From a virus (lineage: Duplodnaviria; Heunggongvirae; Uroviricota; Caudoviricetes): a DNA stretch of 38,358 bases. This document shows, in pieces, positions 1,286 through 34,920 of the stretch. The notes under the pieces are model-generated. The model saw nothing but the letters and a program-made list of their open reading frames with translations. It was not told the origin of the DNA and searched no databases. Numbering within the stretch: position 1 is the stretch's first letter; each line of letters opens with the position of its first letter. The DNA lies in the IMG/VR virus record IMGVR_UViG_3300045988_093140. One strand, written 5' to 3'. The position numbers were made by a program, and so were the translations under genes.

Positions 1286-1926
1286 TTGTCGGTGTACCTC
1301 TCTCGTTTGCTCAGTTGTTCAGGAATATGGTGCAGCAGCTCGCCGTCACCACAGTAAATGGCGGCATGATTCGGCACCGATGAACCAAAGCAGCACAGCA
1401 GCACATCGCCCGGCTGCGCCGCTGACAACGGCACCTGATACAGCCCTGTGGCCTCCAGATTATCAAGATAGAGATTCTGGCCGTTACGCCACCAGTCATC
1501 CTCACGATAAAAGTCCGGCATCTCAATCCCCGCCAGATGGTAAGCGTCCCGGAACAGCGTGTAACAGTCCGTCACCCCGTGCTCAAAGCGCCGCCCGGTG
1601 AGATGCGGCACACAGCGGAACTTATGAATCGCCCCCCGGCAGACCAGCCACCACGGCAAATCACTCTGCACCTGCAGCCGCCGGTCGGCCTCACTCAGCC
1701 AGGGCAGACCACCGGGATGACTGTGGACCAGCGCCACAATCTCACCCTGCATTTCTGCCTGCAGCCAGTCCTCCGGCGACATCCGGAAATAATCCTCCGG
1801 CTCACCGGAGATATTCACGCAGGGAAAATATCTTTCCCCCTCCGGCGTTCTCACCACGAAGCCGCACGACTCCGCTGGCGCACATCGCCGGGCGTGCGCC
1901 AGAATCGCTGATTCTGTCTCTGTCAT
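1183..1926 (-). CDS. K: Tail assembly protein K (JAB/MPN plus NlpC/P60-like); start taken at MTETES, the classical 199-aa lambda annotation would start at 1782
   Basis: C-terminal 199 aa MSPEDWLQAEMQGEIVALVHSHPGG... match lambda gpK; the open frame continues upstream to an ATG abutting the L stop. Confidence 0.8.
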   Translation of the reverse strand: MTETESAILAHARRCAPAESCGFVVRTPEGERYFPCVNISGEPEDYFRMSPEDWLQAEMQGEIVALVHSHPGGLPWLSEADRRLQVQSDLPWWLVCRGAIHKFRCVPHLTGRRFEHGVTDCYTLFRDAYHLAGIEMPDFYREDDWWRNGQNLYLDNLEATGLYQVPLSAAQPGDVLLCCFGSSVPNHAAIYCGDGELLHHIPEQLSKRERYTDKWQRRTHSLWRHRAWHASAFTGIYNDLAAASIFV

Positions 1927-1930
1927 GGGA

Positions 1931-2629
1931 TTACTGCGAAAGTTTGTTAATGGAAAGGAAGCCGCCAAAGTTGCCGACGTTATTGCGGAACTTACAGCCA
2001 CTCAGGCATTTGCTGCATTTATCCTTCGTGATATCGGACGTCGGCTGGTCATATTCATCCGCGACCGCCGGACCGCTATAACCGCACTCATCACCGCGAT
2101 AGGTCCAGGTGCAGGTGTTGGCCAGCATGATGCGCCCCGGAAAAACAGCACCATCCGTTTCCGTCGGCGTGGACAACACAAAGGAGGCACTGACCGCGCT
2201 CAGTTCGCTGCACTGCTCGACGCGCCAGCGGCTGATCACCTCCTGCTCCGGATCGGCATCACTGTTTCCGTTGACGAAATTCACCGCATCCAGAAAACGG
2301 GCGTAAACCTTACGCCTGACCACCGTTCCGCCGACCAGACTCTGCAGATCTTCCACCATCCCGGTGACCATACCGTACAGGTTAGAAACCGTCAGCGTGG
2401 GGCGCGTACTGGTGCCTTTGCCATTCAGTTCAAAACCGCTCCCCTGAATGGGATACGCCTGATACTGTCGCCCCTGCCAGGTGACCGGCTCACCTTTTTC
2501 GTTCTGCTCATTACAGAAAAAATAACGTTCTCCACCGACCTCTGTCAGATCGATTTCCCAGAGCACCACGCTGGCCGACTGCTCCGCACGGGTGCATTCA
2601 TTCAGTGTTTCCTGTTGGATATCCTGCAT
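1931..2629 (-). CDS. L: Tail tip assembly protein L
   Basis: 232 aa, same length as lambda gpL and recognised as gpL from the translation (MQDIQQETLNECTRAEQSASVVLWEIDL...); synteny M-L-K-I. Confidence 0.9.
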   Translation of the reverse strand: MQDIQQETLNECTRAEQSASVVLWEIDLTEVGGERYFFCNEQNEKGEPVTWQGRQYQAYPIQGSGFELNGKGTSTRPTLTVSNLYGMVTGMVEDLQSLVGGTVVRRKVYARFLDAVNFVNGNSDADPEQEVISRWRVEQCSELSAVSASFVLSTPTETDGAVFPGRIMLANTCTWTYRGDECGYSGPAVADEYDQPTSDITKDKCSKCLSGCKFRNNVGNFGGFLSINKLSQ

Positions 2630-2958
2630 CAGTTCACCACCTGTTCAAACTCTGCGCTGAACTCAACACGCAGCATACTGACCCGCGACGACCATTTTGC
2701 GCAGGTCACCTTTATCTGCCGCCACTCATAAGGCGGCGTCCACAGAAAGGCTTTCCAGCCCCCGTGCTCAGCCAGAAACGACTCCAGCGCTGTGGCCTCC
2801 CAACGGGGAACAGAAAGCGTCACGCTGTACGTTTTCAGGTCAGCGTTCAGCCCGGCAGGCGCTCGCTGGGAATAGCCATCACCAAAGCGCACCTTTCTTA
2901 CGGAAGGGGCCGAAGCCACATCCATACCGGGTTTCACTTTCCAGCGGAAGGTTTTCAT
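2629..2958 (-). CDS. M: Tail tip assembly protein M
   Basis: 109 aa, same length and position as lambda gpM (MKTFRWKVKPGMDVASAPSVRKVRFGDGY...). Confidence 0.9.
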   Translation of the reverse strand: MKTFRWKVKPGMDVASAPSVRKVRFGDGYSQRAPAGLNADLKTYSVTLSVPRWEATALESFLAEHGGWKAFLWTPPYEWRQIKVTCAKWSSRVSMLRVEFSAEFEQVVN

Positions 2959-5516
2959 CGTCCACCTCCGGAGAACAGACCACCATCGCGCATCTGCCCG
3001 GTCACAACATCCATTGCCGCCTTACGGGCTACGTCATAAACAGCCTTCAGTGCCTGTGGCCCTATCTGACCGTTCGTGCCGTCGTTGTTAATCACCACAT
3101 GGTTATTCTGCTCAAACGTCCCGGACGCCTGCGACCGGCTGTCTGCCATGCTGCCCGGTGTACCGACATAACCGCCGGTGGCATAGCCGCGCATCAGCCG
3201 GTAGAGATTCCCCACGCCAATCCGGCTGGTTGCCTCCTTCGTGAAGACAAACTCACCACGGTGAACAATCCCCGCTGGCTCATATTTGCCGCCGGTTCCC
3301 GTAAATCCCCCGGTCGCAAAATGGAATTTCGCCGCAGCGGCCTGAATGGCTGTACCACCTGACGCTGATGCTCCACCACTGGCAGCACCGCCAATGGCGC
3401 TGCCGATACTCCCGACAATCCCCACCATTGCCTGCTTAAGCAGAATTTCTGTCATCATGGACAGCACGGAACGGGTGAAGCTGCGCCAGTTCTGTTCACT
3501 GCCGGTCAGCATCGCCGCCATATTCTGTGCAATACCATCAAAGGTCTGCGTGGCAGCACTTTTAACCTGCGACATACTGTCCGTGGCGCTCTCTTCCCAC
3601 TCACTCCAGCCGGACTTCAGGCCTGCCATCCAGCTCCCGCGAAGCTGGTCTTCAGCCGCCCAGGTCTTTTTCTGCTCTGACATGACGTTATTCAGCGCCA
3701 GCGGATTATCGCCATACTGTTCCTTCAGACGCTGTTCCGTGGCTTCCCGCGCTGCCTGCCGGTCAGTCAGCCCCCGGCTTTTCGCATCAATGGCGGCCCG
3801 TTTTGCCCGTTGCTGCTGTGCGAATTTATCCGCCTGCTGCGCCAGCGCATTCAGGTGCTCCTGATACGTGACCTTATCGCCAAGTGCAGCCAGCTGGCGC
3901 TTGTACTCCAGCGTCTCGTCTTTATGCGCCAGCAGGGATTTCTCCTGTGCAGACAGCTGGCGACGTTGCGCCGCCTCCTCCAGTACCGCGAACTGATTCT
4001 CCGCCTTCCACAAATCCCGGCGCTGCTGGCTGATTTTCTCATTCGCTCCGGCATGCTTCTCCAGCGTCCGGAGTTCTGCCTGAAGCGTCAGCAGGGCAGC
4101 ATGAGCACTGTCTTCCTGACGATCGCCCGCAGACACCTTCACGCCGGACTGCTTCGGCTTTTTCAGCGTAGCTTCATAATCCTTTTTCGCTGCCGCCATC
4201 AGCGTGTTGTAATCTGCCTGCAGGATTTTCCCGTCTTTCAGTGCCTTATTCAGTTCTTCCTGACGGGCGGTATATTTCTCCAGCGGCGTTTGCAGGCGTT
4301 CGTAAGCCTTCTGCGCCTCTTCGGTATATTTCAGCCGTGACGCTTCGGTATCGCTCTGCTGCTGCGCATTTTTGTCCTGTTGACTCTGCTGCTCAGCCTT
4401 CTTTCGGGCGGCTTCAAGCGCAAGACGGGCCTTTTCACGATCATCCCAGTAACGCGCCCGCGCTTCATCGTTAACAAAATAATCATCCTTGCGCAGATTC
4501 CAGATGTCGTCTGCTTTCTTAAACGCAGCCTCTGCCTTAATCAGCATCTCCTGAGCGGTATCAGGACGACCAATATCCAGCACCGCATCCCACATGGATT
4601 TGAATGCCCGTGCTGTCCTGTCTGCCCAGGTCTCCAGCGTGCCCATGTTCTCTTTCAGGCGGCGGGTCTGGTCATCAAACCCTTTCGTTGCGGCCTCGTT
4701 CGCCGCCTGCAATGCCCCGGCTTCATCGCCGGAACGCTGCAACTGAGCAACATACGCAATCTGCTCCGCCGTCACGTTATGGAACTGGCGTGCCATCGCC
4801 GTCAGCCCCGACGTCGGGTCTGTGGTCAGCTTCCCGAAGGCTTCAGCGACCTTGTCCACCTCCACGCCGGATGCAGAGGAGAAACGCGCCACACTCTGGC
4901 TGATGGACGCAATCTGAGCCTCACCGCTTACCCCCGCCTTAACCAGTGCGCTGAGTGACTCGCTGGTCTGGTTAAACGTCAGCCCTGCCGCCTGCCCGGC
5001 TCTGGACAGGACCAGCATGCGATCTGCCGTCAGTCCCGCCTGATTGCCGGAAAGGACCAGCGTTTTGTTGAAATCGGACAGGGTTGAGTTGCCCTGATAC
5101 CAGGCATACGCCAGCGCACCGGTCGCCACCGCCAGCGAGGTGGCCCCCACCATCGGCAGGGTGATCGCACCGGCAAGCCCCCTGAACATGGGGATCATCC
5201 CGCCGAAGGAGTCCTTAACCTGACCACCCTGTTGCAGCAGGATCAGCCACGGACTTTGCCCGCCTGCAAGCTGCGTGGCCACGTCGGTGAACTGTGCAGG
5301 CAGCATACGCATGGCGGCTTTATACTGCCCGACGGAAATCCCCGCTTTCTGTGCAGCCAGCGCCTGTCGGCTCAGCGACTGTTCAACGACTGCCGCTGTT
5401 TTTTTCGCATCACTTTCCGTACCGGAAAAATGACGCCTGACTCTGGCCATCTGCTCGTCAAATCTGGCCGCATCCAGACTCAAATCAACGACCAGATCGC
5501 CTACCGGTTCAGCCAT
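2955..5516 (-). CDS. H: Tail tape-measure protein H
   Basis: 853 aa (lambda gpH length), long Ala/Gln-rich coiled-coil core, position between T and M. Confidence 0.95.
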   Translation of the reverse strand: MAEPVGDLVVDLSLDAARFDEQMARVRRHFSGTESDAKKTAAVVEQSLSRQALAAQKAGISVGQYKAAMRMLPAQFTDVATQLAGGQSPWLILLQQGGQVKDSFGGMIPMFRGLAGAITLPMVGATSLAVATGALAYAWYQGNSTLSDFNKTLVLSGNQAGLTADRMLVLSRAGQAAGLTFNQTSESLSALVKAGVSGEAQIASISQSVARFSSASGVEVDKVAEAFGKLTTDPTSGLTAMARQFHNVTAEQIAYVAQLQRSGDEAGALQAANEAATKGFDDQTRRLKENMGTLETWADRTARAFKSMWDAVLDIGRPDTAQEMLIKAEAAFKKADDIWNLRKDDYFVNDEARARYWDDREKARLALEAARKKAEQQSQQDKNAQQQSDTEASRLKYTEEAQKAYERLQTPLEKYTARQEELNKALKDGKILQADYNTLMAAAKKDYEATLKKPKQSGVKVSAGDRQEDSAHAALLTLQAELRTLEKHAGANEKISQQRRDLWKAENQFAVLEEAAQRRQLSAQEKSLLAHKDETLEYKRQLAALGDKVTYQEHLNALAQQADKFAQQQRAKRAAIDAKSRGLTDRQAAREATEQRLKEQYGDNPLALNNVMSEQKKTWAAEDQLRGSWMAGLKSGWSEWEESATDSMSQVKSAATQTFDGIAQNMAAMLTGSEQNWRSFTRSVLSMMTEILLKQAMVGIVGSIGSAIGGAASGGASASGGTAIQAAAAKFHFATGGFTGTGGKYEPAGIVHRGEFVFTKEATSRIGVGNLYRLMRGYATGGYVGTPGSMADSRSQASGTFEQNNHVVINNDGTNGQIGPQALKAVYDVARKAAMDVVTGQMRDGGLFSGGGR

Positions 5517-5943
5517 ACCGGACTCCTCCTGCGATCCCTTCTGATACTGTCATCAGCATTACGTCATCCTCCGTCATTTCAGCCACATCCGGGGAAGCGG
5601 AGATAACTTCATTCCCGTCCGGACCAAAGCGGACGCCTCCGGCAAGCCCTGCCGCTTTCTGCATCAGCACATCATCTTCAGGCTCTTCGTCAGCCTCGCG
5701 CCGGTTCAGCAGACTGAAATCCAGCGGATGCATATCCGGATCGCTGAAAAACAGGCTGAGTACGGTGTACGTCAGCCCGGAAAAGTGCATATCCAGCAGA
5801 ACATCATGAAAATAATGGGTACTGTAAAAGCGGTGCCAGTCGGCGTACTCCGTGGATGACATCCCGGCAAGCATGGCGCGCCAGTCGGGTCGCCCCATCT
5901 CTCGCGCCAGTTTCAGGGCAAAACTCAGCTCACCGTCGAACAC
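5509..5943 (-). CDS. T: Tail assembly chaperone T frame (expressed only as G-T fusion by -1 frameshift)
   Basis: 144 aa ORF overlapping the G 3' end, same length and arrangement as lambda T. Confidence 0.85.
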   Translation of the reverse strand: MFDGELSFALKLAREMGRPDWRAMLAGMSSTEYADWHRFYSTHYFHDVLLDMHFSGLTYTVLSLFFSDPDMHPLDFSLLNRREADEEPEDDVLMQKAAGLAGGVRFGPDGNEVISASPDVAEMTEDDVMLMTVSEGIAGGVRYG

Positions 5944-6347
5944 TTTCCCGCAGAAACAGGCTCTGCAGGCCCGGCGTCCTCTGTCTGTTCAGGGGCATCA
6001 TTCACCACAAACTCATACATTCCGGACAGCCGGTACACCACGTTTTCAGCATGAGAAATTGCCTCCGCGGGCCAGGTGGTAAGCACTTCCTGCTCAATCT
6101 GTTTAACGGCTTCATTCATGGACGGCATCTGCGTCTTCTTCGGATGGTTATGCCACAGGGACATCGCCACCACAAAAGCACCGGTTCTGATAAGGTCTGC
6201 CAAAGCAACCTGTTGGTTGCTGTCGGAGTCCGCCTGTTCTGCCTGCCGTTTCATCAGAAAAAGATGCTCAATACGCTGCAGGGCTGACAGTTCAGAAAGC
6301 GTGACGGTCACGCCGTTATGTTCAAATGATTCGGTTTTCAGGAACAT
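5925..6347 (-). CDS. G: Tail assembly chaperone G
   Basis: 140 aa, same length and position as lambda gpG; slippery heptamer near its 3' end. Confidence 0.9.
   Translation of the reverse strand: MFLKTESFEHNGVTVTLSELSALQRIEHLFLMKRQAEQADSDSNQQVALADLIRTGAFVVAMSLWHNHPKKTQMPSMNEAVKQIEQEVLTTWPAEAISHAENVVYRLSGMYEFVVNDAPEQTEDAGPAEPVSAGKCSTVS
5943..5949 (-). other. GGGAAAG slippery heptamer for the programmed -1 frameshift producing G-T
   Basis: Plus strand reads CTTTCCC at 5943-5949, i.e. G GGA AAG on the coding strand, located in the G/T overlap exactly as in lambda. Confidence 0.7.
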
Positions 6348-6362
6348 CGCTGACTCTCCGGA

Positions 6363-7103
6363 TTAGCTGTCGGTGACGTTGATTTCTGCAACCGCAGCAA
6401 ACTCACCATTACCGGATACAACCGGAATGTTGACCTTGCCTGCAGCAACACCTTTCACGGTGATGGTCATACCACTGACCGACACGGTGGCTTTTGTTTT
6501 ATCCGCAGACACCGCACGGAAGCTCTTGTCGGTTGCGCCCTCCGGCTGGAATGCCACGGTCAGCGTCGTGCTCTGCCCTTTCACCACCGAGGTGCTGGCA
6601 GGCGTCACGGTCATACCGGTTGCCGCTGTTACCGTGCTGCGATCTTCTGCCATCGACGGACGTCCCACGTTGGTGACTTTCACCGTGCGGGTGATCACTT
6701 CCTTCGCTGTCACCGCCTTACCGATGCTGCTGACCCAGCCGCGGAACACATCGACCGTGCCGTTCGGGAAGCGGATTTTATAGGCACGGGTATCACCTTC
6801 ATTAAACCACGCCAGCAGCGCCTGCTGCCCCTGCTCTCCGGGCATCCACGCCAGCGTGAAGCTGGTATCTCCGGCAGATTTCTGCCCCTGCCCGGTCGCG
6901 GTCCAGTCTGCATCTTCATCATCGAGATAGCTGTCGTCATAGGACTCAGCGGTCAGTTCGCCGGGCGTCAGGTCTTTAACTTTAGCCAGACGCGACCAGT
7001 CAACGTCTGAAAGCGGGTTCGCATAAGGGTCACCGTTCCCCTTATAAACCCACAGGGTGGTTCCGGCCCCTTTCACCGGTGCCAGAGGATTTGGTGTTGG
7101 CAT
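6363..7103 (-). CDS. V: Major tail protein V (C-terminal Ig-like domain)
   Basis: Recognised as lambda gpV from the translation; start set at the [22 protein letters not shown] Met ten codons inside the track ORF, giving 246 aa as in lambda. Confidence 0.9.
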
Positions 7104-7110
7104 ATCGTCC

Positions 7111-7506
7111 TCACATTTCATAGGTAATGACATAAGTCAGATCGGCTGAACTCCACAGGCCCGCATCATCGTCGCGCCGGTAGTCATAGCCACTGGCCAC
7201 CATACTGGTGATCAAATCTGACAGTGCCGGGATATCGCTCATCACCGGATAAATCCGGGACTCCATCCACGCATCCAGCTCTGAATCCGGCACCTGAGCA
7301 GGCAGGAAAACTTCAATATGCAGCTCCGCCTGCCAGGTATCGCTGTCCAGCTCTTCGCCCGTGTATTCAGCGCCGGTGAGATAAACGGCAACTGCCGGAA
7401 AATCCGCCTCATCAAAAACAGCGGGGCGACCATCAAAAAACGTCGCCCCGGTGTCATGCTTCTCCAGTGCATCCAGTACGGCTGCACGGAGTTCAGTATG
7501 TTTCAT
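7111..7506 (-). CDS. U: Tail terminator protein U
   Basis: 131 aa, same length as lambda gpU ([30 protein letters not shown]...). Confidence 0.9.
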
Positions 7507-8081
7507 CGCTTTATTACCATCCTCAGTTGATGCTGCAGCGCATAGCCCAGCTCTTTCGGAAGACGTTCACGCCGTATCTGCTCAATATTCTGTTTAAACG
7601 CCGTGGTCAGCGGCACCGCCATCGGGATTTTCACCACATCAATGGGGTAACGGTTTTTCCCGGCCACACGCTGCATGACATGCCACCGGCCATTTTTCAG
7701 TTGCTGAATAAACGCGCCGGGAATACGACGGTTTCCCACCACAAGCACGCTGCCGCCACCTTTCAGGGATGAACGCTGCCCCTTTTTACGACGCCTGCGG
7801 CGGGACAGGACAACCCGCGCATTCCCCAGCTTGATTACGGGCAAATCCCCCCGGTTAACCCTGATTCTGGCCTGCGGATTTTTGACCGTGGCCCTTTTCA
7901 GTCTGGCCCTTTCCTTTACCAGTTTCCGGCGTACCTTTGTCTCACGGGCAACCTGTGCCGCCGACTGCGATATCGCGGATGAAGCAACGCGGTTAATGGC
8001 CATTGCTGACGCACCAGGCACCGCCGTTTTGCTGATACGGCTGAGGTTTTCAACGGCCTGCTCAAGACCTTTTATGGCCAT
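7503..8081 (-). CDS. Z: Tail completion protein Z
   Basis: 192 aa, same length and position as lambda gpZ. Confidence 0.9.
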   Translation of the reverse strand: MAIKGLEQAVENLSRISKTAVPGASAMAINRVASSAISQSAAQVARETKVRRKLVKERARLKRATVKNPQARIRVNRGDLPVIKLGNARVVLSRRRRRKKGQRSSLKGGGSVLVVGNRRIPGAFIQQLKNGRWHVMQRVAGKNRYPIDVVKIPMAVPLTTAFKQNIEQIRRERLPKELGYALQHQLRMVIKR

Positions 8082-8092
8082 ACATCCCCCTT

Positions 8093-8446
8093 TCAGCGAC
8101 GACGGTTAACGGCAGGCGGCACGCCACGCCCAAGCCAGAGATGACAGCTTCCGCCATCATCCGGCGAAATCCGGTCTATCCAGAAGTTTTCCTCACCGAT
8201 GGTCAGCGTGTCGCCGCGCCGCAGCTGCCGCACATCATCAGTCCGGACAAACAGGGACGGGCTGGAGCCTTCAACGCGCACGCCCTGTCCGGCATAGCTG
8301 ATATTTTCAGGGTCATCAAAAACACCACGTATCACAGCACCGGACTGCTCACCGGATGTCATGGTGGCTGACGTTCCCATGTACCCGCGTATCGTTTCAT
8401 CGGCGCGGGCAATGGCAGCATCGAACAGGTTATCGAAATCAGCCAC
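8093..8446 (-). CDS. FII: Head-tail connector protein FII
   Basis: 117 aa, same length and position as lambda gpFII (MADFDNLFDAAIARADETIRGYMGTSATM...). Confidence 0.9.
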   Translation of the reverse strand: MADFDNLFDAAIARADETIRGYMGTSATMTSGEQSGAVIRGVFDDPENISYAGQGVRVEGSSPSLFVRTDDVRQLRRGDTLTIGEENFWIDRISPDDGGSCHLWLGRGVPPAVNRRR

Positions 8447-8457
8447 AGCGCCTCCCG

Positions 8458-8853
8458 TTATTGCATTCTGGCCAGGCCGCGCTCTGTCATTTCGGCTGCC
8501 ACACCGGCAGAGACACGAAACGCCGTTCCCGGCAGCACAAATGCCACAGGTTCATCCCGCGTGGCGTGAAGTGCATCGGTATGCAGCGTCACCAGTGCCA
8601 CAACCGTGACCAGAGCAGCCGTATCAGTCACGGTATCCGTCTGTGCTGATACCACCTCATTTTCATGTCCGGTCAGCGCATTTTCCGGGCTGACAGACGA
8701 GTCCTGACCGGCTGCGTCATCCGTGTCATCAAGCTCCTCTTCCAGCTCTGCCACACGGAGCGCCAGTTCTTCTTTCGTCCCCGTCAGGCTGACATCACGG
8801 TTCAGTTGCTCACCCAGCGACCGGAGACGGGCAATCAGTTCATCTTTCGTCAT
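8458..8853 (-). CDS. FI: DNA packaging protein FI
   Basis: From the internal Met MTKDELIARLRSLGEQLNRDVSLTGTKEELALRVAEL... gives 132 aa as in lambda gpFI. Confidence 0.85.
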   Translation of the reverse strand: MTKDELIARLRSLGEQLNRDVSLTGTKEELALRVAELEEELDDTDDAAGQDSSVSPENALTGHENEVVSAQTDTVTDTAALVTVVALVTLHTDALHATRDEPVAFVLPGTAFRVSAGVAAEMTERGLARMQ

Positions 8854-8894
8854 GGACTCCTCCACAGAGAAACAATGGCCCCGAAGGGCCATGA

Positions 8895-9920
8895 TTACGC
8901 CAGTTGTACGGACACGAACGCATCAGGGTCAGCCAGCAGCATCAGCGGTGCTGACTGAATCATGGTGAACTCACGCGCCGGATCGCCAGTGGTCACCCAG
9001 TTTTTCGGGTAGCGGGCAGAGGCGTTAATACCTTCGCGCTGTGCGTCCGCATCCTGAATGCATCCATAGGTGCGCAGACCGCGTGCCTGAGTGTTCCCCA
9101 GCACCATCGTGTTGTCCGGCAGGAAGTTCTTTTTGACGTCGTTTTCCACGTACTGTCCGGAATACACGACGATCGCCGTATCGCCATACATCCCCTTATA
9201 GGACACCGCTTCGCCCAGGTCTTTTACCGCTGTCTCCAGCTCGGAATTAGAGCCGCGACGGGTATCCAGCTTCTCCTTGACGGCTTTGAAGGAACGGAAC
9301 AGCGCCCAGCCTTTCGGATCAAACACGATGATATTCACCACGCCGCTGGCGTTCAGCGCGTAGGCTTCGATATCGTCGGTCGGGTCATACGTGGACTTGT
9401 CACGCTTGCTCCACTCCGTGCCGCCGGACTGTGTGATGTTATTCGCCGCACTGCGGCCCATATCCACCTCAACCGGATCGAAGGCTTCACCGGTCATGGT
9501 GTATTTGCCCTTAAGCACGGCAGAAACGGCCTGCATCTCTTCGACCTGAGCAATGGCCAGCTCTTCGTCTCGCATGTTCTGCATGATGATGCGACGGCGG
9601 CGGTAAGCCGGGTCTGCCAGATTCTGTGGATCTTCATCCGGCAGGCGACGCAGGGTCATCTGCGGATTCACCTCATGCTTCGGCTTGACATATCCCGGCG
9701 TAAATTCGGAGGTGGAGCCGCCACGGGAGCGGATAACCTCACCGGAAACAATCGGCGAAACGTACAGCGCCATGTTTACCAGTCCCGGAATTTGTGAGAG
9801 ATAGACTTTCTCCGTGGTGAAGGGATAGCTCTCACGGAAAAAGAGACGCAGAAACAGCGGATCAAACTTAAATTTCTTCTCATTTGCCGCCAGCAGCTGG
9901 GCGGTTGTGTACATCGACAT
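8895..9920 (-). CDS. E: Major capsid protein E
   Basis: From MSMYTTAQLLAANE... gives 341 aa, recognised as lambda gpE along the whole length. Confidence 0.95.
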   Translation of the reverse strand: MSMYTTAQLLAANEKKFKFDPLFLRLFFRESYPFTTEKVYLSQIPGLVNMALYVSPIVSGEVIRSRGGSTSEFTPGYVKPKHEVNPQMTLRRLPDEDPQNLADPAYRRRRIIMQNMRDEELAIAQVEEMQAVSAVLKGKYTMTGEAFDPVEVDMGRSAANNITQSGGTEWSKRDKSTYDPTDDIEAYALNASGVVNIIVFDPKGWALFRSFKAVKEKLDTRRGSNSELETAVKDLGEAVSYKGMYGDTAIVVYSGQYVENDVKKNFLPDNTMVLGNTQARGLRTYGCIQDADAQREGINASARYPKNWVTTGDPAREFTMIQSAPLMLLADPDAFVSVQLA

Positions 9921-9975
9921 AAAAAAATCCCGTAAAAAAAGCCGCACAGGCGGCCTTTAGTGATGAAGGGTAAGG

Positions 9976-10308
9976 TTAAACGATGCTGATTGCCGTTCCG
10001 GCAAACGCAGTCCGTTTTTTCGTCTCGTCGCTGGCAGCCTCCGGCCAGAGCACATCCTCATAACGGAACGTGCCGGACTTGTAGAACGTCAGCGTGGTGC
10101 TGGTCTGGTCAGCAGCAACCGCCAGAATGCCAACGGCAGCACCGTCGGTGGTGCCATCCCACACAACCAGCTTACGGGTGGAGGTATCCGGCATCAGCGG
10201 GGTCATTGCAGGCGTTTTCGCACTCAATCCGCCGGGCGCGGTTGCCGTATGTGCCGGGTCACTGTTGCCCAGCGGCTGGTAATGGGTAAAGGTTTCTTTG
10301 CTCGTCAT
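9976..10308 (-). CDS. D: Capsid decoration protein D
   Basis: From [12 protein letters not shown]... gives 110 aa, recognised as lambda gpD. Confidence 0.9.
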
Positions 10309-10317
10309 AAACATCCC

Positions 10318-10923
10318 TTACACTGGTGTGTTCAGCAAATCGTTAACGGCATCAGATGCCGGGTTACCTGCAGCCAGCGGTGCCGGTGCCCCCTGCATCA
10401 GACGATCCAGCGCAGTGTCACTGCGCGCCTGTGCACTCTGTGGTGCAGCTGCCAGAATGCGGCGGGCCGTTTCCACGGTCATACCGGGGGTTTCTGCCAG
10501 CACGCGGGCCTGTTCTTCGCGTCCGTGAGCCTCCTCACAGTTGAGGATCCCCATAATGCGACTGTTTTCTGCCGCAACCGCTGCGGTGATCTGCGCGTTC
10601 ACGTCCGGTTGCGCCGCGCTGGCGTTTTCGCCCTCCGTCGCTGGCACCACGTCAGTAACGTCAGCCTGCGAAGCAGTGGCTGAAACAGTTGTTGATTGAG
10701 TCTCTTTGGTCATTCGCCCTCCTGAGAGACGGGATTTACGTGCATCCAGTGCATCACGCATGACGGTGATCGCATCGGTACTGTTAACAAGTTCATCAGC
10801 CAGTCCGGCATCAATGGCCTCCTGACCGCTGTACACTGCAGCCTCGGTATCCAGCACAGCCTGCACGGACAGGCCGGTATATGCCGACACCTTCTGTGCA
10901 AACATCCGGCGGGTTGCATCCAT
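10318..10923 (-). CDS. Nu3: Scaffolding protein Nu3, in-frame internal start within C
   Basis: ATG at 10923 is codon 239 of C (MDATRRMFAQKVSAYTG...), giving 201 aa as in lambda Nu3. Confidence 0.6.
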   Translation of the reverse strand: MDATRRMFAQKVSAYTGLSVQAVLDTEAAVYSGQEAIDAGLADELVNSTDAITVMRDALDARKSRLSGGRMTKETQSTTVSATASQADVTDVVPATEGENASAAQPDVNAQITAAVAAENSRIMGILNCEEAHGREEQARVLAETPGMTVETARRILAAAPQSAQARSDTALDRLMQGAPAPLAAGNPASDAVNDLLNTPV

Positions 10924-11617
10924 CCGGGACTGCAGTGTTTCCCGGACATCATCCGGTAGATGGCTGTAGGGGTTGCCATCCACCTTATGGCTGCCGCTGT
11001 AAATCAGCGTGATTTCCACGCCCTGTTTCTCCAGCGCAGCACCGTAATTACTGTGAGCCATCATGACGCCGATGGAGCCTGTCCGGGCGGTCTGCGTGAC
11101 CAGACGCCGGGAGGCGGCGCTGGCAAGCAACTGACCTGCACTGCAGTTCATGTCGTTGGCCAGCGCCCATACCGGCTTTATGTCACGCACACGGGCGATG
11201 ATGTCAGCGCAGTCAAATGCCCCTGCCACCATTCCGCCGGGCGTGTCCATATCGAGCAGAATGCCGTCCACCATCGGGTCGCTGGCAGCCTGTTGCAGAC
11301 GGGCGATAATGCCGTTGTAACCGGTCATCCCCGAATACGGCTGCAGCGCCCGTGTCCGGCTGACCAGCGTGCCGGAAACCGGCAGCACGGCGATGCCGTT
11401 CATGACCTGATAACTGCGGGCCTGTCGTGGTCCGTCATCATCAACGGATAACGCCAGCGTCGCGGGTGCCTCTCCGGCAGTCAGGCTGTCGCCGGATACC
11501 GCATCCGTCAGGCGGCTGATCCCAAGCTGGCCTGCAAGCGCACAAAAGAAAACCCGCGCATAGGCGGGTTCAAGCATCAGCGGCTCATTAAAGGCCATAC
11601 TGGCAATATGCGGGAGA

Positions 11618-11637
<20 letters not shown>
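10318..11637 (-). CDS. C: Capsid assembly protease / minor capsid protein C (GTG start)
   Basis: 439 aa from VTAELRNLPHIASMAFNEPLMLEPAYARVFF..., recognised as lambda gpC; GTG at 11637 overlaps the B 3' end by 20 nt as in lambda. Confidence 0.85.
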
Positions 11638-15318
<3,681 letters not shown>

Positions 15319-15344
<26 letters not shown>

Positions 15345-15864
15345 TCAGCAACCCCGGTATCAGTTCATCCAGCGCGGCTGCTTTGTTCATGGCTTTGATG
15401 ATATCCCGTTTCAGGAAATCAATATGCCGGTTATCCAGCTCAGGAAAACGTCGCTGCACCGACAGAGGAATACCGTCGAGAATACTGGATATTTCCCTTG
15501 CTATACGCGACAGCACGAAAGTACAGAATGCGGTTTCCACCACTTCAGCCGATTCTTTGGCATTTTTCAGTTCCTGCGCCGTCGCCTGAGCACGAGTCAG
15601 GCGATGGCGCTCAAATTCAAGTGTTCCTGGGTGAAGATCTGCCTCGCTGGCCAGCCGCAGTTCTTCAACCTCCCGGCGCAGCTTTTCGTTCTCAATTTCA
15701 GCATCCCTTTCGGCATACCATTTTATGACGGCGGCAGAGTCATAAAGCACCTCATTACCCTTGCCACCGCCTCGCAGAACGGGCATTCCCTGCTCTTGCC
15801 AGTTCTGAATGGTACGGATACTCGCACCGAAAATATCAGCCAGCTGCTTTTTGTTGACTTCCAT
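15319..15864 (-). CDS. Nu1: Terminase small subunit Nu1
   Basis: 181 aa (lambda Nu1 length), MEVNKKQLADIFGASIRTIQNWQEQGMPVLRGGGKGNEVLYDSAAVIKWY... Confidence 0.95.
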
Positions 15865-16000
15865 TGTTCATTCCACGGACAAAAACAGAGAAAGGAAACG
15901 ACAGAGGCCAAAAAGCCCGTTTTCAGCATCTGTCGTTTCCTTTCTTTTCAGGGGGTGTTTTAAATAAAAACATGAAGTTACGGCGAAGAAGAACGGAAAC

Positions 16001-16080
16001 GCCTTAAACCGGAAAATTTTCATAAATAGCGAAAACCCGCGCGCCTTCCGCCCCGTAGCCTGCCGGATCGCCGGAAAGGA
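16001..16080. other. cos site region (cosN with flanking cosB/cosQ-like sequence); nick-site bases differ from lambda
   Basis: About 190 bp upstream of Nu1; 16001-16041 equals the reverse complement of the lambda left end, 16061-16085 resembles the lambda right end, but 16042-16060 reads CGCCTTCCGCCCCGTAGCC rather than the lambda cohesive-end sequence. Confidence 0.6.
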
Positions 16081-16135
16081 CCCGCAGGCGTTCTAGTTTA
16101 TTCGCAATGAATTCAATGTCTGACAGACCTGCGTC

Positions 16136-16153
16136 GTGCGACCACGGTCGCAC
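16136..16153. repeat. sopC-like 18-bp palindrome GTGCGACCACGGTCGCAC, copy 1
   Basis: Exact inverted repeat; core GACCACGGTC shared with the F-plasmid SopB binding site as I recall it. Confidence 0.6.
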
Positions 16154-16167
16154 AGCAATGAATCAAC

Positions 16168-16236
16168 ATCCTGCATGCTCGCGCAGAGGAGTTCCCCGTC
16201 GGACTACGGTCATGGTTAATGCGGGAATACAGCGAC
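16168..16236. repeat. 68-bp direct repeat, left copy, flanking the AT-rich cassette
   Basis: ctcgcgcagaggagttccccgtcggactacggtcatggttaatgcgggaatacagcgacgatacagcgc; second copy at 17963-18032 with 5 mismatches. Confidence 0.9.
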
Positions 16237-16362
16237 GATACAGCGCATGATGTGTCAGGCTTGAATACCTTTATCCGTTAAAAGGGATATCAGTTAAGTT
16301 ATCCCGTGCAGGGTATAAGCCATTATCAAAGCCACTCAGTAGCGAATGGCTTTTGTAATGGA

Positions 16363-16812
16363 CTATTTAATTAGTGATGCTGCGTATTCGATTAGATATA
16401 ACTTAGGTGCCAGCCAAATTTTTAACCATGTCATATTGGCTACTACAGAAATAATAAAACTGAACCATAGAATAAAAACTGCTACTAATGGTAAGACAAA
16501 ACCACTTAACCTACCGTCACTTTCCCAAATCATAGTCGGTTTGTATTTAGGCTGTCCATTATCGCATGAGCGTCCTTCATTATCGAACTTACCAATTTCA
16601 ACTTTTTTGCACTGTTTCTTCATAAACCAAATAACCAGCGGAATTGTTGAAATGGCTATTAATGTTTTAATCAGGCTATCAACCATATTCCATACCAGCA
16701 ACTGATGAACAACATCCGGAATTTGAGCCTGACTGAATACAATGGCGGAATCAATTCCATCGCTGGCCTTCTTCAATAAATCAACAAGAATTTTATTTGC
16801 TTCTTCTTGCAT
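16363..16812 (-). CDS. Hypothetical small membrane protein, two predicted TM helices, in AT-rich cassette
   Basis: 149 aa ORF with ATG at 16812 and AGGA 8 nt upstream; hydrophobic stretches LIKTLIAISTIPLVIWFM and GFVLPLVAVFILWFSFIISVVA; low GC. Confidence 0.7.
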   Translation of the reverse strand: MQEEANKILVDLLKKASDGIDSAIVFSQAQIPDVVHQLLVWNMVDSLIKTLIAISTIPLVIWFMKKQCKKVEIGKFDNEGRSCDNGQPKYKPTMIWESDGRLSGFVLPLVAVFILWFSFIISVVANMTWLKIWLAPKLYLIEYAASLIK

Positions 16813-16937
16813 GTTTATATCCTGTAAGTTGTAAGTCTGTTCGAAAAAAAAACAAACAACTACGAGAGACAGAAAAAATATCTCAGGCTCTCTTTCTATA
16901 AGCTTTTAGTTGAGGATGTTCTGCAAAACAAAACTGG

Positions 16938-17798
16938 TTAGTTATGTAACTGCTTCCGGAATACAACAGCCGACGTGCTACAACGTAAAATTCGCTTGAT
17001 TGTGGCAGTTGAGGAAACAGACTTGCATTTCTCAACATCATCAATAATGACCACATCCGGTACAGGAATGACGCGGGTATGCAATGTTTTTGCACTAATA
17101 ACATCACAGCCATTCAGTGGTCGAATATCTGCATCTTCAGGCACTACCAGAAGCACACGTTTTTCCGGTGCAGAAAAGCCAGCAGCAAGAGTGCGTGACA
17201 ATAAAGTCATTCCGCTGCGTGGCTTCATACAAATTTCAGAAATATGATTCTTTTCGTCCAAATGATGCTGGACATCATTTTTATCATCATTCAACAACTC
17301 TGCTGTTAATACAATCCCTGCTGTCTCAGATTTCCAGGAAATGCTGATATCCTGATCATCTGCATCAACATCATATTTCATCGAGTAAGGACTAAAGCTA
17401 CGTCCAACGAACGCATCATTTACCAGTACACGCCCACCCTGTCTGACCTGAAAGTCAACGCGCCCTGAAAGCTGATTTGCTGTTACAAGCAATGCCTTTT
17501 TTCTTTTTGTTTTATTGCTCATTGCCACCAACTGTTCAGCCATCTCTCTTGTCACACTACCAGAAACTCTTTCTTGAATTTTCACAGAAAATTTTCTGGA
17601 TGTAGTAGCATCGACATTAAAAAATCTGGATGTCATCAGGCAGTTATTAACAATTGGCATCAGCTCACTTACGATTGTAAAAAATTCCCGGTAAAGCTCA
17701 TTTTGCTTTTCAACACACAGCTTTCCACAATCGTCCAGCTTACGCTCAAGAGCACTTAACCTTTCCATTATTGAATTAATTTTTTGCAACTCTTTCAT
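16938..17798 (-). CDS. Hypothetical cytoplasmic protein, 287 aa, N-terminal coiled coil, in AT-rich cassette
   Basis: ATG at 17798 preceded by AGGAGG (MKELQKINSIMERLSALERKLDD...); the track ORF extends further upstream only because there is no in-frame stop; no family recognised. Confidence 0.7.
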   Translation of the reverse strand: MKELQKINSIMERLSALERKLDDCGKLCVEKQNELYREFFTIVSELMPIVNNCLMTSRFFNVDATTSRKFSVKIQERVSGSVTREMAEQLVAMSNKTKRKKALLVTANQLSGRVDFQVRQGGRVLVNDAFVGRSFSPYSMKYDVDADDQDISISWKSETAGIVLTAELLNDDKNDVQHHLDEKNHISEICMKPRSGMTLLSRTLAAGFSAPEKRVLLVVPEDADIRPLNGCDVISAKTLHTRVIPVPDVVIIDDVEKCKSVSSTATIKRILRCSTSAVVFRKQLHN

Positions 17799-17821
17799 CA
17801 AAACCTCCTGACAAAGATACC

Positions 17822-17839
17822 GTGCGACCACGGTCGCAC
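17822..17839. repeat. sopC-like 18-bp palindrome, copy 2 (extends to 20 bp, 17821-17840), 22 bp upstream of the cassette start codon
   Basis: cGTGCGACCACGGTCGCACg. Confidence 0.6.
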
Positions 17840-17962
17840 GCTCCTGAATACATGCCCTGTTTCTTCCACCCTCGCACAGGACTGGCGAACATGAGGGACA
17901 AACCCGCGAATCAATAGCGCGGTAAAAACCCGGTGTGCATCGTTTTTGATTATTCCCGCACA

Positions 17963-18032
17963 CTCGCGCAGAAGGAGTTCCCCGTCGGGCTACGGTCATA
18001 GTTAATGCGGGAATACGGCGACGATGCAGCGC
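17963..18032. repeat. 68-bp direct repeat, right copy
   Basis: ctcgcgcagaaggagttccccgtcgggctacggtcatagttaatgcgggaatacggcgacgatgcagcgc. Confidence 0.9.
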
Positions 18033-18042
18033 GGAATTTAGC

Positions 18043-18060
18043 GTGCGACCACGGTCGCAC
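18043..18060. repeat. sopC-like 18-bp palindrome, copy 3
   Basis: GTGCGACCACGGTCGCAC. Confidence 0.6.
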
Positions 18061-18079
18061 ACGAGAAACAAAGAGATTT

Positions 18080-18391
18080 TTATGCTACAGAGGAACAAGC
18101 TGGCGGGTAATTCAGCGTAGTGAATACCGGCATCTCCATCTTGTATGCGTAATGATACTCAGCAGTTGCTCCAGCAGACGCTTTCCAGCCAGGAAGCATC
18201 AAAATAGCATCAGCAGAACGAAGCATTGCAAAGCAAATATCCATGTATTCACGTTGCGTCAGGCCATTGGGTAAAGTGGCTGGATTCAGGACCGAATGAC
18301 CATGACGTGACAAACGCTCAGCCTCTTTATTAAAGGCGTCACGATTAAAATTCTCATATCCCGTCATTGGTCCGGCAATATAAATTTTCAT
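18080..18391 (-). CDS. Small conserved prophage protein, DUF4406 / nucleoside 2-deoxyribosyltransferase-like fold (recalled)
   Basis: 103 aa, MKIYIAGPMTGYENFNRDAF...; ATG confirmed at 18391. Confidence 0.6.
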   Translation of the reverse strand: MKIYIAGPMTGYENFNRDAFNKEAERLSRHGHSVLNPATLPNGLTQREYMDICFAMLRSADAILMLPGWKASAGATAEYHYAYKMEMPVFTTLNYPPACSSVA

Positions 18392-18432
18392 TTACTATCC
18401 AACAAATTAAGTTAGTTTTTGATGCAGATGGA

Positions 18433-18894
18433 TTAATTCAGGCATTGCGTCCTGATGTACTCCTGCAAATATCCAACCTGTTTCGTCACTGTGACGATTC
18501 GCTCTCTGAGGATGAAATAATCCCGTTCAGCGGAGTCAGTAAGTCGGGGGCCGGTAGCATCGCCCAGGCCGCCGGTGATGGTCGTTCCGTTCGCGGGACA
18601 TCTGGCGTTGAGGTGCAGCCCACACTTGCCAGTGCGAACACAACGCTGCAAATCATCAAGCTGCTTTTTGGCATCAGCTAAGTCCTTCGTGTATTTGGCA
18701 TCCAGAGCCGCTACATCACGCTGGCGGATCTGCATGTCTTTGATGGTAGCGTTCGCCAGCTTCAACTCTCTGGCGTTTTTGTCGCGCTGCTCTTTATAGG
18801 AGATGGCGTTATCACGGTAATGATTAACAGCCAACGACAGGCAGACGATGATGCAGATAACCAGTGTGGAGATAATCGCGGTGACTCTGCTCAT
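18433..18894 (-). CDS. Rz: Spanin, inner-membrane subunit Rz
   Basis: From [49 protein letters not shown]... recognised as lambda Rz; N-terminal TM plus coiled coil. Confidence 0.9.
18486..18674 (-). CDS. Rz1: Spanin, outer-membrane lipoprotein subunit Rz1, embedded in the +1 frame of Rz (start codon uncertain)
   Basis: Lipobox ALASVGC followed by Pro-rich ...[24 protein letters not shown], resembling lambda Rz1; fully nested in Rz. Confidence 0.7.
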
Positions 18895-19391
18895 TACTGC
18901 CCCCACAAACAGACTTCACGCTCAATCTCACGGCGAGTCATCAGCCCTTTCCATTGCTTACCGCCAGCATATGTCCAGCGACGTAGTTGATCACATGCAC
19001 CTTTGATATCGCCCTGGTTGATTTTGCGAAGAAGCGTCGATGTTCTGAAATTGCCTGCACCCACGTTGTAAACGAACGAGTAAAGAGCACCACGCGTTGT
19101 TTCCGGTATATCGACTTTGATGTACGGGTTAATTTGTCTGGCGACAGTAGCAAGGTCTTTATTCAGGAGAGCTTTGCATTCAGCTTCGGTATACGTTTTA
19201 CCGAGCATAATGTCTTTTCCTGTATGCCCGTAACATACAGTCCATACACCAACGATGTCTTTGTAGGGGTTATGTTTCACACCTTCCAGACCATCGTTGC
19301 CGCTCGGACCAGAGATGAGCACAGATGCTATGGCAATAGCCCCGCCACCAATAGCAGTTGCGACAGCTTTGCGTAATGATGACTGCATCAT
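18894..19391 (-). CDS. R: SAR endolysin (lysozyme), phage 21 R-type
   Basis: 165 aa; N-terminal weakly hydrophobic Gly/Ala-rich signal-anchor-release segment [20 protein letters not shown] followed by lysozyme-like domain. Confidence 0.9.
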
Positions 19392-21341: not shown

Positions 21342-21581
21342 TCAATCTTGAAACTGGAAATCAACATCAGCCATAAAGCGGTTCAACTCAGCCAGTTTTG
21401 ACCCCATAGTCCCAACTAAGCGACCAGCCAGTCGGTCTGCTAGGTTGGTACTGTTGAAACCATATTCCTTTTCGAAACGTTCAACCTTCTGCCACAACTC
21501 ATACAGTTCGTTAGCTATCTCCGCAACGTCGTCGCGCATTTTTTCGTTACCTTGATAATTCATAATATCCTCCAAATTCAT
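21342..21581 (-). CDS. Hypothetical small protein
   Basis: 79 aa ORF, no family recognised. Confidence 0.45.
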   Translation of the reverse strand: MNLEDIMNYQGNEKMRDDVAEIANELYELWQKVERFEKEYGFNSTNLADRLAGRLVGTMGSKLAELNRFMADVDFQFQD

Positions 21582-21728
21582 ATAGTTAGTAGGTTATTGC
21601 CCCTCAATGACACGAACTGTAACTCTGCCAAACGAACACATCCAGTGTTATTTTTCACTTTTTAGTGAAATTTTTAATTTGCGCTGTTTTCTCGTTTTGG
21701 TGTATTTTATGGGTATGGAGGCTATAAT

Positions 21729-22040
21729 ATGTTTAACGTGATAACCCACCCTGCAGCACTGGATGAACTGCTTGAACTACCAGATGATTTGCGAGGTCGC
21801 ATGACCAGATTAATTGAGCGACTGGAGAAAGAAGGCAACAAACTGAAGATGCCTCATAGCCGTGTAATAGGTGGAGGGCTTTTTGAACTACGAGTAGGGG
21901 ATAAAAACATCGCAAGAACGCTGTACGCCTACGCGACTGGTAACGAAATTTATCTATTGCATGCATTTGTAAAAAAGACACAGAAAACACCGGTGAAGGC
22001 TATCGAAATCGCCAGAACTCGCCTGAAGGAGATGAACTGA
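21729..22040 (+). CDS. Type II toxin, RelE/ParE superfamily (HigB-like / Gp49-like), toxin-first operon
   Basis: 103 aa; 4-nt ATGA overlap with the downstream HTH gene; upstream palindrome TCACTTTTTAGTGA. Confidence 0.7.
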   Translation: MFNVITHPAALDELLELPDDLRGRMTRLIERLEKEGNKLKMPHSRVIGGGLFELRVGDKNIARTLYAYATGNEIYLLHAFVKKTQKTPVKAIEIARTRLKEMN

Positions 22041-22327
22041 TGAAAGCGAAAGGCATCCCGTTTAACGAAGTAAAAGAAAAACTCCTCAACACTCCAGAAG
22101 CCGTCAAAGGATATGAAGAGGCCGACAAAGAGCTGGAGATGGTCGAAATGTTATACGAAATGAGGGAAAGAGCAGGTTTAACGAAATCAGCTCTGGCTGA
22201 ACGAATGGGGTTGCGCCCGTCAGCCATCAGCCGCCTGGAAAGCAATCCTTTAGGGGCAAGTATGAAAACTTTGGCTAAATATGCTCATGCCTGCGGCGCA
22301 ACCATCGATATTCGCGCTGTTTATTAA
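22040..22327 (+). CDS. HTH XRE-family antitoxin (HigA-like)
   Basis: 95 aa with HTH segment LTKSALAERMGLRPSAISRLE. Confidence 0.7.
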   Translation: MKAKGIPFNEVKEKLLNTPEAVKGYEEADKELEMVEMLYEMRERAGLTKSALAERMGLRPSAISRLESNPLGASMKTLAKYAHACGATIDIRAVY

Positions 22328-22369
22328 TTAGACCCTTTTACCACCCCGTCCAGAAGGGCGGGGTGTGCA

Positions 22370-34419: not shown

Positions 34420-34554
34420 CAAAATCAGGATAGCCCGAGCCGCCCCATTAGTAAAGTAAAGTGTAAATAACATTTATATTTTAATGTAATAAAAATGCTA
34501 CGTTTTGTTGTATATTATTCTAATGGTAGTTCAGGCGGGGCCGACTTCGGTCGG

Positions 34555-34606
34555 GCCGGTTTCTCCGTTTACCGGTATTGCGAACCCTGCCTGGGCTATC
34601 ACCATA
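34555..34606 (+). repeat. c4-like repeat, copy 1, upstream of icd/ant (candidate antisense-RNA or target element)
   Basis: gccggtttctccgtttaccggtattgcgaaccctgcctgggctatcaccata, preceded by hairpin CCGAC-TTCG-GTCGG. Confidence 0.35.
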
Positions 34607-34867
34607 ATATCGTTTATCTTCTAATCATTTGTTTAAGCAAACTATAAAAACACCTATCCCCGTGACTGGTCACAGGGTAAAATGTCTTTGCAAATTATTG
34701 ACGTGTGCGTCGTTTTGACGGTAAAGTTATTCCGCTGCGGTAAATCCCGTAGCCGGGCGTAGGAACCCGAGTAAATGAAGCGCACAACACGCGCCAGCGT
34801 GTTTTTTTGTGTGTAAAATCTGCGTACACCAAATTTATGGTGGCTCAGATGGGGCAGCTTTTAGCTG

Positions 34868-34920
34868 GCCGGTTTCTTCGTTTACCGGTATTCCTACCCC
34901 CGTCTGGGCTACCGCCATAT
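34868..34920 (+). repeat. c4-like repeat, copy 2
   Basis: gccggtttcttcgtttaccggtattcctacccccgtctgggctaccgccatat; 5' 25 nt identical to copy 1 except one base. Confidence 0.35.

Follow-up and report, generated by a model that had tools for sequence, protein, structure and literature searches.

A probable Gp49/Tad-Ata toxin-antitoxin cassette and its putative operator on an N15-like linear phage-plasmid

Two adjoining plus-strand genes in a stretch of viral DNA of 38,358 nucleotides (IMG/VR record IMGVR_UViG_3300045988_093140; the window hereafter denotes this whole stretch) probably constitute, at about 0.85 in our estimation, a self-contained type II toxin-antitoxin (TA) cassette of the Gp49/Tad-Ata family, i.e. 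a Gp49-type HigBA, orthologous to genes 49/48 of N15 and carried by an N15-like linear plasmid-prophage. The pair is not new: compared by sequence, it is a near-identical copy of the N15-type gp49/gp48 TA pair already described. The N15 pair is a stabilising TA system homologous to tad-ata, as the work of Dziewit et al. (2007, J Bacteriol 189:1983) is relayed in later papers (PMC2701414, PMC3581621, PMC5906591, PMC2654960), and N15 gp49 is the namesake and founding phage member of the Pfam family Gp49. Makarova et al. (2009, PMC2701414) placed the Tad toxins in COG4679/DUF891, with N15 gp49 as a named example, described Xre-HTH antitoxins for them and detected their similarity to RelE. Wherever TA modules with a Gp49-domain toxin have been studied, the toxin gene comes first (PMC5906591). 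A sequence-only reading of the same DNA had taken the pair for a toxin-first, RelE/HigB-like type II TA module on a plasmid-prophage, which agrees with the published N15 orthologs (92% and 85% amino acid identity for toxin and antitoxin, respectively).

The toxin gene (21729-22040, plus strand) encodes a protein of 103 amino acids, the gp49 ortholog and predicted Gp49/Tad/HigB-type mRNA endoribonuclease of RelE fold; the antitoxin gene (22040-22327, plus strand) encodes an XRE-type helix-turn-helix (HTH) protein of 95 amino acids, the gp48 ortholog, which is Ata/HigA-like. A Shine-Dalgarno sequence, GGAGG (21717-21721, plus strand), precedes the toxin gene and is conserved in the alignments, and the one that would serve the antitoxin gene, AAGGAG (22026-22031, plus strand), is seen within the 3′ end of the toxin gene. 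The two genes meet in the sequence TGATG, where the stop codon TGA (22038-22040) and the start codon ATG (22040-22042) share 1 nt; the 4-nt overlap given by the sequence-only reading is therefore incorrect for this DNA. N15 also has the 1-nt junction, and phiKO2 and the chromosomal homologs have a 4-nt ATGA overlap. Taken together, AAGGAG and the TGATG junction can serve for translational coupling, as predicted from their arrangement. The toxin-first order with an adjoining or overlapping XRE-HTH gene is common to eight homologous loci. An inverted repeat of the region (I1) was discarded, as it corresponds to the two divergent ribosome-binding regions.

The profile search that the sequence-only reading had proposed as a check gave a clear result for both proteins. 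The 103-residue protein matched Pfam Gp49 (PF05973, a family also known as COG4679/DUF891) along the complete profile, positions 1-90 of 90, with an E-value of 2.5e-29 and 101.6 bits against a curated cut-off of 23.9 bits, and the 95-residue protein matched HTH_3 over residues 38-90 (E 2.8e-12). These matches and the open reading frames agree with the earlier description of a Gp49/RelE-like product followed by an XRE-HTH product on the plus strand. An NCBIfam scan assigned no family to the toxin, and for the antitoxin it returned only HTH families below threshold. The toxin is 92% identical to N15 gp49 (8 substitutions) and 91% identical to phiKO2 Gp49, and among the records of N15-like Escherichia and Klebsiella phages toxin identity ranges from 88 to 100%; the antitoxin is 85% identical to N15 gp48 (14 substitutions) and 80% identical to phiKO2 Gp48. 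RefSeq labels identical copies of the pair as RelE/ParE-family toxin and HTH regulator, and places the phiKO2 toxin in the same RelE/ParE family. Sequence matches of the antitoxin in the PDB were HigA2 of Mycobacterium tuberculosis, HipB and the HigA partner of 6af3, the last one weak (E 0.009).

The toxin was modelled with AlphaFold2 from an alignment of 38 homologs (pLDDT 89.9, pTM 0.84). In the model, a beta strand (residues 3-6) is followed by two helices (8-15 and 19-35), four beta strands (44-48, 51-57, 62-70 and 73-82) and a long C-terminal helix (89-102), which is the topology of the RelE/BECR fold. When the model was compared with the PDB by Foldseek, the best match was the ribosome-bound HigB1 of M. 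tuberculosis (7nbu_Y; E 4.8e-6, TMq 0.78), with Streptococcus pneumoniae HigB (6af4) next and then YoeB and RelE; the sequence profile of the toxin matched S. pneumoniae HigB (6af3) with E 6.8e-11 and HigB1 with E 1.5e-7. HigB1 cuts mRNA at the A site of the ribosome, with catalytic or positioning roles for its residues E66, R68, R77, F93 and K95 (Mansour et al. 2022, PMC9098466). The HMMER alignment places these residues at E53, R55, R63, F80 and K82 of the toxin studied here, all five invariant in 38/38 aligned homologs, and a survey of 2025 describes the toxins of the gp49 family as mRNases that depend on the ribosome and are encoded first in their operons (PMC11980606, Table 1). Since the modelled fold is HigB-like, the mapped catalytic residues are invariant and family members are mRNases, the toxin is most likely an active A-site mRNase. 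A gyrase poison of the ParE type was rejected, given that ParE structures appeared far below the RNase toxins in the Foldseek comparison (E >0.03, TMq 0.39-0.51) and that the RNase residues are kept.

Comparison with solved and classical systems places the pair more precisely. HigB1 (Rv1955; PDB 7NBU, 7AWK) belongs to the same Gp49 family and, at about 27% identity to the toxin of the window, shares its fold, including the long C-terminal helix, and the alignable catalytic residues. However, HigB1 is the toxin of a three-gene toxin-antitoxin-chaperone (TAC) system, whereas no SecB-like chaperone gene is present in the window; the gene next to the pair is a convergent gp47-like open reading frame of 67 amino acids with no Pfam match, and a TAC arrangement was discarded. 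The HigBA pair of S. pneumoniae (PDB 6AF3, 6AF4), the best profile match among solved structures, is likewise toxin-first, although its toxin is only about 24% identical and has a longer N-terminus (141 amino acids). The classical HigBA systems of plasmid Rts1 and E. coli K-12 also combine a toxin-first order, a RelE-fold mRNase, an XRE-HTH antitoxin and autoregulation via promoter palindromes (PMC11980606), but they belong to other Pfam families (HigB-like, PF05015, and HigB, PF09907) and their structures are only remotely similar to the model (5ycl and 6kml, TMq about 0.5, E >0.03). The N15 pair shares the TGATG junction, the genomic slot, the antisense orientation and the upstream palindrome, and the phiKO2 pair the slot and the orientation.

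The palindrome located upstream of the toxin gene (21653-21670) is formed by two perfect 7-nt arms, TTTCACT and AGTGAAA, separated by a 4-nt spacer, tttt; it lies at the left border of the cassette, and we consider it a putative operator. Its core, TCACTTTTTAGTGA, extends from 21655 to 21668, and the 38 kb window has a single TCACT-N4-AGTGA motif, versus 0.02 expected from shuffled sequences. The palindrome upstream of the N15 pair, TTTCACTTTTTAGTGAAA, is identical to that of the window, and that of phiKO2 carries one substitution in the spacer and has arms of 8 nt instead of 7. A putative −35 element, TTGCGC (family consensus TTGnGT), is recognised by conservation at 21679-21684 of the plus strand, and a conserved TATTGnGT block stands 8-9 nt 3′ of the palindrome in cassettes from unrelated contexts. 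The putative −10 region, TGTATTTT at 21701-21708 of the plus strand (GGTATATT in relatives), lies 16-18 nt past the −35-like element and aligns with a TATATT that is conserved in N15, phiKO2 and Xenorhabdus; with respect to N15, one base of the promoter spacer is deleted in the window and the −10 hexamer reads TGTATT instead of TATATT. These conserved promoter-like elements were not called by a scan with the sigma-70 consensus, in which the −35-like hexamer scores 3 of 6, and the sole plus-strand match of that scan (21559-21586), inside the start region of gp50 and within chance expectation, was dismissed. The sequence-only reading had situated a palindrome in the promoter region; the palindrome exists, but just upstream of the −35-like element and not over the core promoter. 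If the inferred promoter is right, the palindrome would be centred roughly at −53, which is not the classical position of an occluding repressor.

The conservation of this arrangement was analysed in eight homologous cassettes, six of them from chromosomal or other non-phage contexts (Buttiauxella, Yersinia, Xenorhabdus, Winslowiella, Photorhabdus and Edaphovirga) and two from N15-like contigs (Serratia and Pectobacterium). Upstream similarity among the cassettes starts at the dyad and runs via the −35-like and −10-like elements to the Shine-Dalgarno sequence, and the distance from the dyad to the ATG of the toxin gene is nearly constant, about 61-64 nt, in N15, phiKO2 and the chromosomal cassettes. 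Moreover, in a relative that carries hicAB, the backbone remains homologous exactly as far as the left edge of the dyad. The arms themselves vary in step: the window, N15, phiKO2 and Winslowiella have TTTCACT/AGTGAAA, Xenorhabdus TTTCTCT/AGAGAAA (CTC/GAG), Pectobacterium TTTATCT/AGATAAA (ATC/GAT) and Yersinia ATTAACT/AGTTAAT (AAC/GTT). Counted over 11 sequences, 85.7% of the cells of the paired arms are complementary versus 73% in shuffles, with 0/500 shuffles reaching the observed value, 24-49% when the partner column is slid, and eight cells in which both sides have changed. This count includes two sequences without the site, Buttiauxella, which has no dyad, and Edaphovirga, which has a rearranged set of AAC-type half-sites; both were kept because this avoids selecting for the result. 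In Yersinia and Edaphovirga, additional half-sites surround the −35 element. The first arm base tends to track the recognition helix of the antitoxin, with Ser/Thr accompanying C and Asn accompanying A, a trend taken from a small sample in which Photorhabdus is an exception. A third half-site, AGTG at 21644-21647 (repeat D1), was set aside, as it is conserved neither in N15 nor in phiKO2.

A palindrome of this kind can also be read as RNA, and the N15 GenBank record indeed annotates a "putative rho-independent terminator" stem-loop at the site. According to that annotation, the palindrome would form a plus-strand hairpin that acts as a weak intrinsic terminator or as an insulator, shielding the cassette from upstream read-through. 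A T-rich run follows it, its 41-nt context folds better than shuffled sequences (−7.5 kcal/mol, z −2.8), and compensatory changes in the arms would maintain an RNA stem equally well as a protein-binding site. Nevertheless, the stem of 7 bp contains only 2 G-C pairs and is far weaker than those of functional terminators, and the phage has no plus-strand gene upstream that needs termination, as gp50 is divergent. A terminator would account neither for the fixed spacing of the palindrome to the −35 and −10 elements, nor for the half-site copies around the −35 element in Yersinia and Edaphovirga, nor for the tendency of the variable arm base to co-vary with the Ser/Thr or Asn of the recognition helix. 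We therefore regard the annotated function as improbable. Because the RNA hairpin is weak, no plus-strand gene lies upstream, the arms change symmetrically and the spacing is fixed, the palindrome is quite likely the operator of the antitoxin, a putative assignment that derives from sequence comparison.

At the other end of the cassette, a GC-rich hairpin with a 10-bp stem and the loop AGAA (22342-22365) sits between the convergent antitoxin and gp47-like genes and folds with −23.8 kcal/mol in a 61-nt context (z −3.6). No T-run accompanies it on either strand, which is why the hairpin escaped the terminator scan; at the corresponding spot, N15 carries a canonical intrinsic terminator. When the hairpin was sought in other loci, only the near-identical YDC107_1 proved to have it. 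As judged from its predicted fold, it probably ends or blocks transcripts arriving from both directions. If it blocks both ways, transcription of gp50 and gp51 would need either antiterminated read-through antisense to the cassette or another promoter, for which the conserved backbone block at about 21600-21650 is a candidate.

By its gene set the window is an N15-like (genus Ravinvirus) linear phage-plasmid. The region around the pair is 99% identical to Escherichia phages PhiR46_1 and YDC107_1 of this genus and 76% identical to Klebsiella phage phiKO2, and elsewhere in the window there are lambda-type genes for head, tail and lysis, together with a Q antiterminator, a protelomerase and a large replication/primase gene. 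Pfam scans of the neighbours gp50, gp51, the gp47-like gene and others gave no significant match. Flanking accessory open reading frames differ between the window and N15. In YDC107_1, the 99%-identical annotated record, 18/18 other coding sequences located up to about 4 kb away in either direction are opposite in strand to the pair, as the sequence-only reading had stated for the neighbours, and the GC skew changes sign across the pair. The order gp51, gp50, antisense pair and gp47/gp46 homologs is shared by the window, N15 and phiKO2, and in the Serratia and Pectobacterium N15-like contigs the pair is likewise placed and oriented. Over the pair, the GC content showed no anomaly and no signature of foreign DNA, and being unremarkable it gives no support to a recent insertion. 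The comparisons of gene order thus indicate that the pair is an old, conserved resident of the gp47-gp50 slot in N15-like elements of Escherichia, Klebsiella, Serratia and Pectobacterium, and not a recent insertion.

The earlier proposal that the pair had been inserted at the early/late junction consequently stands only in part. The pair is conserved in place in N15-like elements, but the slot itself is exchangeable, since one Enterobacter relative has hicAB there: in phage MStein-2023a, hicA (Pfam E 6.8e-10) and hicB (Pfam E 2e-12) stand between the gp50 and gp47 homologs, also antisense, and a 63-amino-acid 5′ remnant of the gp48 gene is retained. As for the junction, the pair comes last in the rightward delayed-early operon and is read antisense to it; the location is about right, although in phiKO2 and N15 the putative late promoter is annotated two genes past the pair, between genes 51 and 52. 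The cassette is also present, at 92-99% nucleotide identity, in 29 Escherichia or Shigella plasmids of PLSDB, where the pair is already annotated; 28 of the 29 are predicted to be non-mobilizable, and most of those listed measure 45-90 kb.

Taking these features into account, we propose that the pair functions as an addiction module. In the model, the toxin would enter the ribosomal A site and cleave mRNA, thereby arresting translation, and the antitoxin would neutralise it by direct binding. The HTH dimer of the antitoxin, alone or with the toxin, would bind the palindrome beside the −35 element and autoregulate the operon. With its own putative promoter and the terminal hairpin, the cassette could be expressed in the lysogen independently of lytic transcription. 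The antitoxin would be the less stable partner, and hence loss of the low-copy linear prophage would leave the cell poisoned; this post-segregational killing would stabilise the prophage alongside its partition system. By analogy, the stabilisation of the low-copy linear prophage by post-segregational killing is the most likely role of the pair. For the N15 pair, stabilisation is reported on a heterologous plasmid (Dziewit et al. 2007). Whether a pair of this kind stabilises its native replicon is less certain, since the SXT homologs were dispensable in their native context, their deletion having no measurable effect on SXT stability (PMC2654960).

Three other interpretations of the pair were weighed. 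The main selected function might be anti-phage defence or inter-phage competition by abortive infection, which is compatible with addiction: by shutting down transcription in the host, or by sequestering or destabilising the antitoxin, a superinfecting phage would free the RNase toxin. A Gp49-family HigB in a TAC module is reported to mediate abortive infection when triggered by the lambda major tail protein (PMC11980606), the content of the slot can be exchanged, as in defence or accessory islands, and the same cassette resides in chromosomes, where plasmid stabilisation is irrelevant. However, the pair has no adjacent chaperone or sensor gene, and neither protein has a full-length match to a defence family in PADLOC-DB 2.0, where the toxin partially matched the C-terminal 54 positions of NsnC (E 2.6e-7) and the antitoxin gave generic HTH matches only. 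Stabilisation is, moreover, the sole activity reported for the N15 ortholog (Dziewit et al. 2007), and we consider defence unlikely as the main function, though it is the least unlikely of the three. Much less credible is a catalytically dead or non-toxic toxin, with the pair acting as a small phage transcription-factor module. Non-toxic members of the Gp49 family exist, as expression of HigB2 and HigB3 of M. tuberculosis is not toxic (PMC9098466), but the toxin studied here retains all the mapped catalytic residues, which are invariant, is kept at 88-100% amino acid identity in N15-like phage records, and is 92% identical to N15 gp49, which reportedly acts as the toxin in a working TA system that confers stability (Dziewit et al. 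2007). Finally, the old name of the family (DUF891/Gp49) and the label "phage-related protein" that some sources still give to homologs would suit a structural or other non-TA protein. The RelE/HigB fold, with solved toxins as the best matches, and the constant pairing with an HTH gene, even in chromosomes with no phage genes nearby, refute this identity for the first open reading frame, to which we give almost no credence.

A more speculative extension concerns the slot rather than the pair. The region between gp47 and gp50 could be a dedicated, swappable TA/defence bay, occupied by gp49/gp48 in most N15-type phage-plasmids and by hicAB in one Enterobacter relative, the cargo of which would mainly serve inter-phage conflict or be coupled to the lytic switch of the phage itself. 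Because the delayed-early operon reads the cassette antisense, antiterminated lytic transcription would collide with TA transcription and starve the cell of labile antitoxin, and the RNase thus freed would act as a host shut-off or abortive-infection device. Independently of this, the symmetric operator variants CAC, CTC, ATC and AAC and the Ser/Thr or Asn residue that the recognition helix pairs with them would represent a simple specificity code insulating co-resident cassettes from one another. We hold this extension, bay and code together, to be doubtful, and retain post-segregational killing as the role of the pair.

For the annotation of the window, the pair is useful as an accessory addiction module of a Ravinvirus phage-plasmid; as a discovery it matters little, given that public annotation pipelines already label such copies correctly. 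What is new is the predicted operator, with covariation support, for antitoxins of the N15 gp48 type, at a place where the N15 record has a terminator. This palindrome travels with the cassette into unrelated chromosomes, its dyad symmetry being kept by symmetric changes in the arms, and the slot of N15-like elements appears to exchange whole TA cassettes with their border at the putative operator.

The residues 58-67 of the antitoxin, encoded at 22211-22240 of the window, were set against the arms of the putative operator in the comparison loci L007-L013. Cassettes with the half-site TTTC.CT encode an antitoxin whose recognition helix reads A(I/L)(S/T)RLE, while those carrying TTTA.CT or TTAACT half-sites encode A(I/L)NRLE, a pairing that holds with one exception in a sample of 11 sequences. 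This pattern suggests that specificity would rest on one residue and one base.

In the interval separating gp50 from the cassette, a backbone block, CTCAATGACACGAACTGTAACTCTGCC...CACATCCAG (21600-21650), is kept in N15, phiKO2 and an Enterobacter phage, and the Serratia and Pectobacterium elements contain shorter segments of the same block (AACTCTGC, CACATCCAG). The block is not present in the chromosomal cassettes, and a search for a σ70 consensus on the minus strand found none; the block may be a promoter or a regulatory site of gp50. At the opposite end, where the antitoxin gene and the gp47-like gene converge, a stable GC-rich hairpin with a 10-bp stem is located between the two at 22342-22365, with no T-run on either strand, whereas the corresponding position in N15 is taken by a canonical intrinsic terminator.

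The gp47-gp50 slot is occupied differently in the Enterobacter phage MStein-2023a (L004, CP115603), where a hicA/hicB toxin-antitoxin pair replaces gp49 (1462-2327, minus strand, equivalent to 21650-22230 of the window). Backbone homology between both sequences stops exactly where the left edge of the palindrome falls. After hicA/hicB, the gp48 antitoxin gene persists as a 63-aa 5′ remnant that keeps the N-terminal part of the protein, and this truncated antitoxin might still neutralise incoming gp49-type toxins.

Elsewhere in the phage-plasmid, Rfam places two C4 antisense RNAs flanking the Hfq-binding RNA isrK (34519-34606, 34734-34807 and 34833-34919, plus strand), all above the gathering score; antirepressor control (immunity) is presumably encoded in this stretch. 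The arm with the head, tail and lysis genes (1-19381) shows 95-96% nucleotide identity to a set of Escherichia phages of 45-50 kb whose genes are named in lambda style (PhiR70_1, Turner, PhiR11_1 and PhiR30_1). Because the arm matches these phages and N15 is not among its top matches, sequence comparison suggests that the structural arm has recently undergone mosaic exchange.

Formate-hydrogenlyase or formate-dehydrogenase genes are repeated neighbours of chromosomal cassettes (Buttiauxella L005/L006, Edaphovirga L013 and Xenorhabdus L008). hycI and an Fe-S protein gene flank the cassette in both Buttiauxella and Edaphovirga, although the two cassettes lie in opposite orientations and their upstream dyads differ. 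A Photorhabdus luminescens contig (L011, 701-2093) contains two Gp49-HTH cassettes back to back and divergently transcribed, which constitute a natural test case for cross-talk or insulation between paralogous cassettes.
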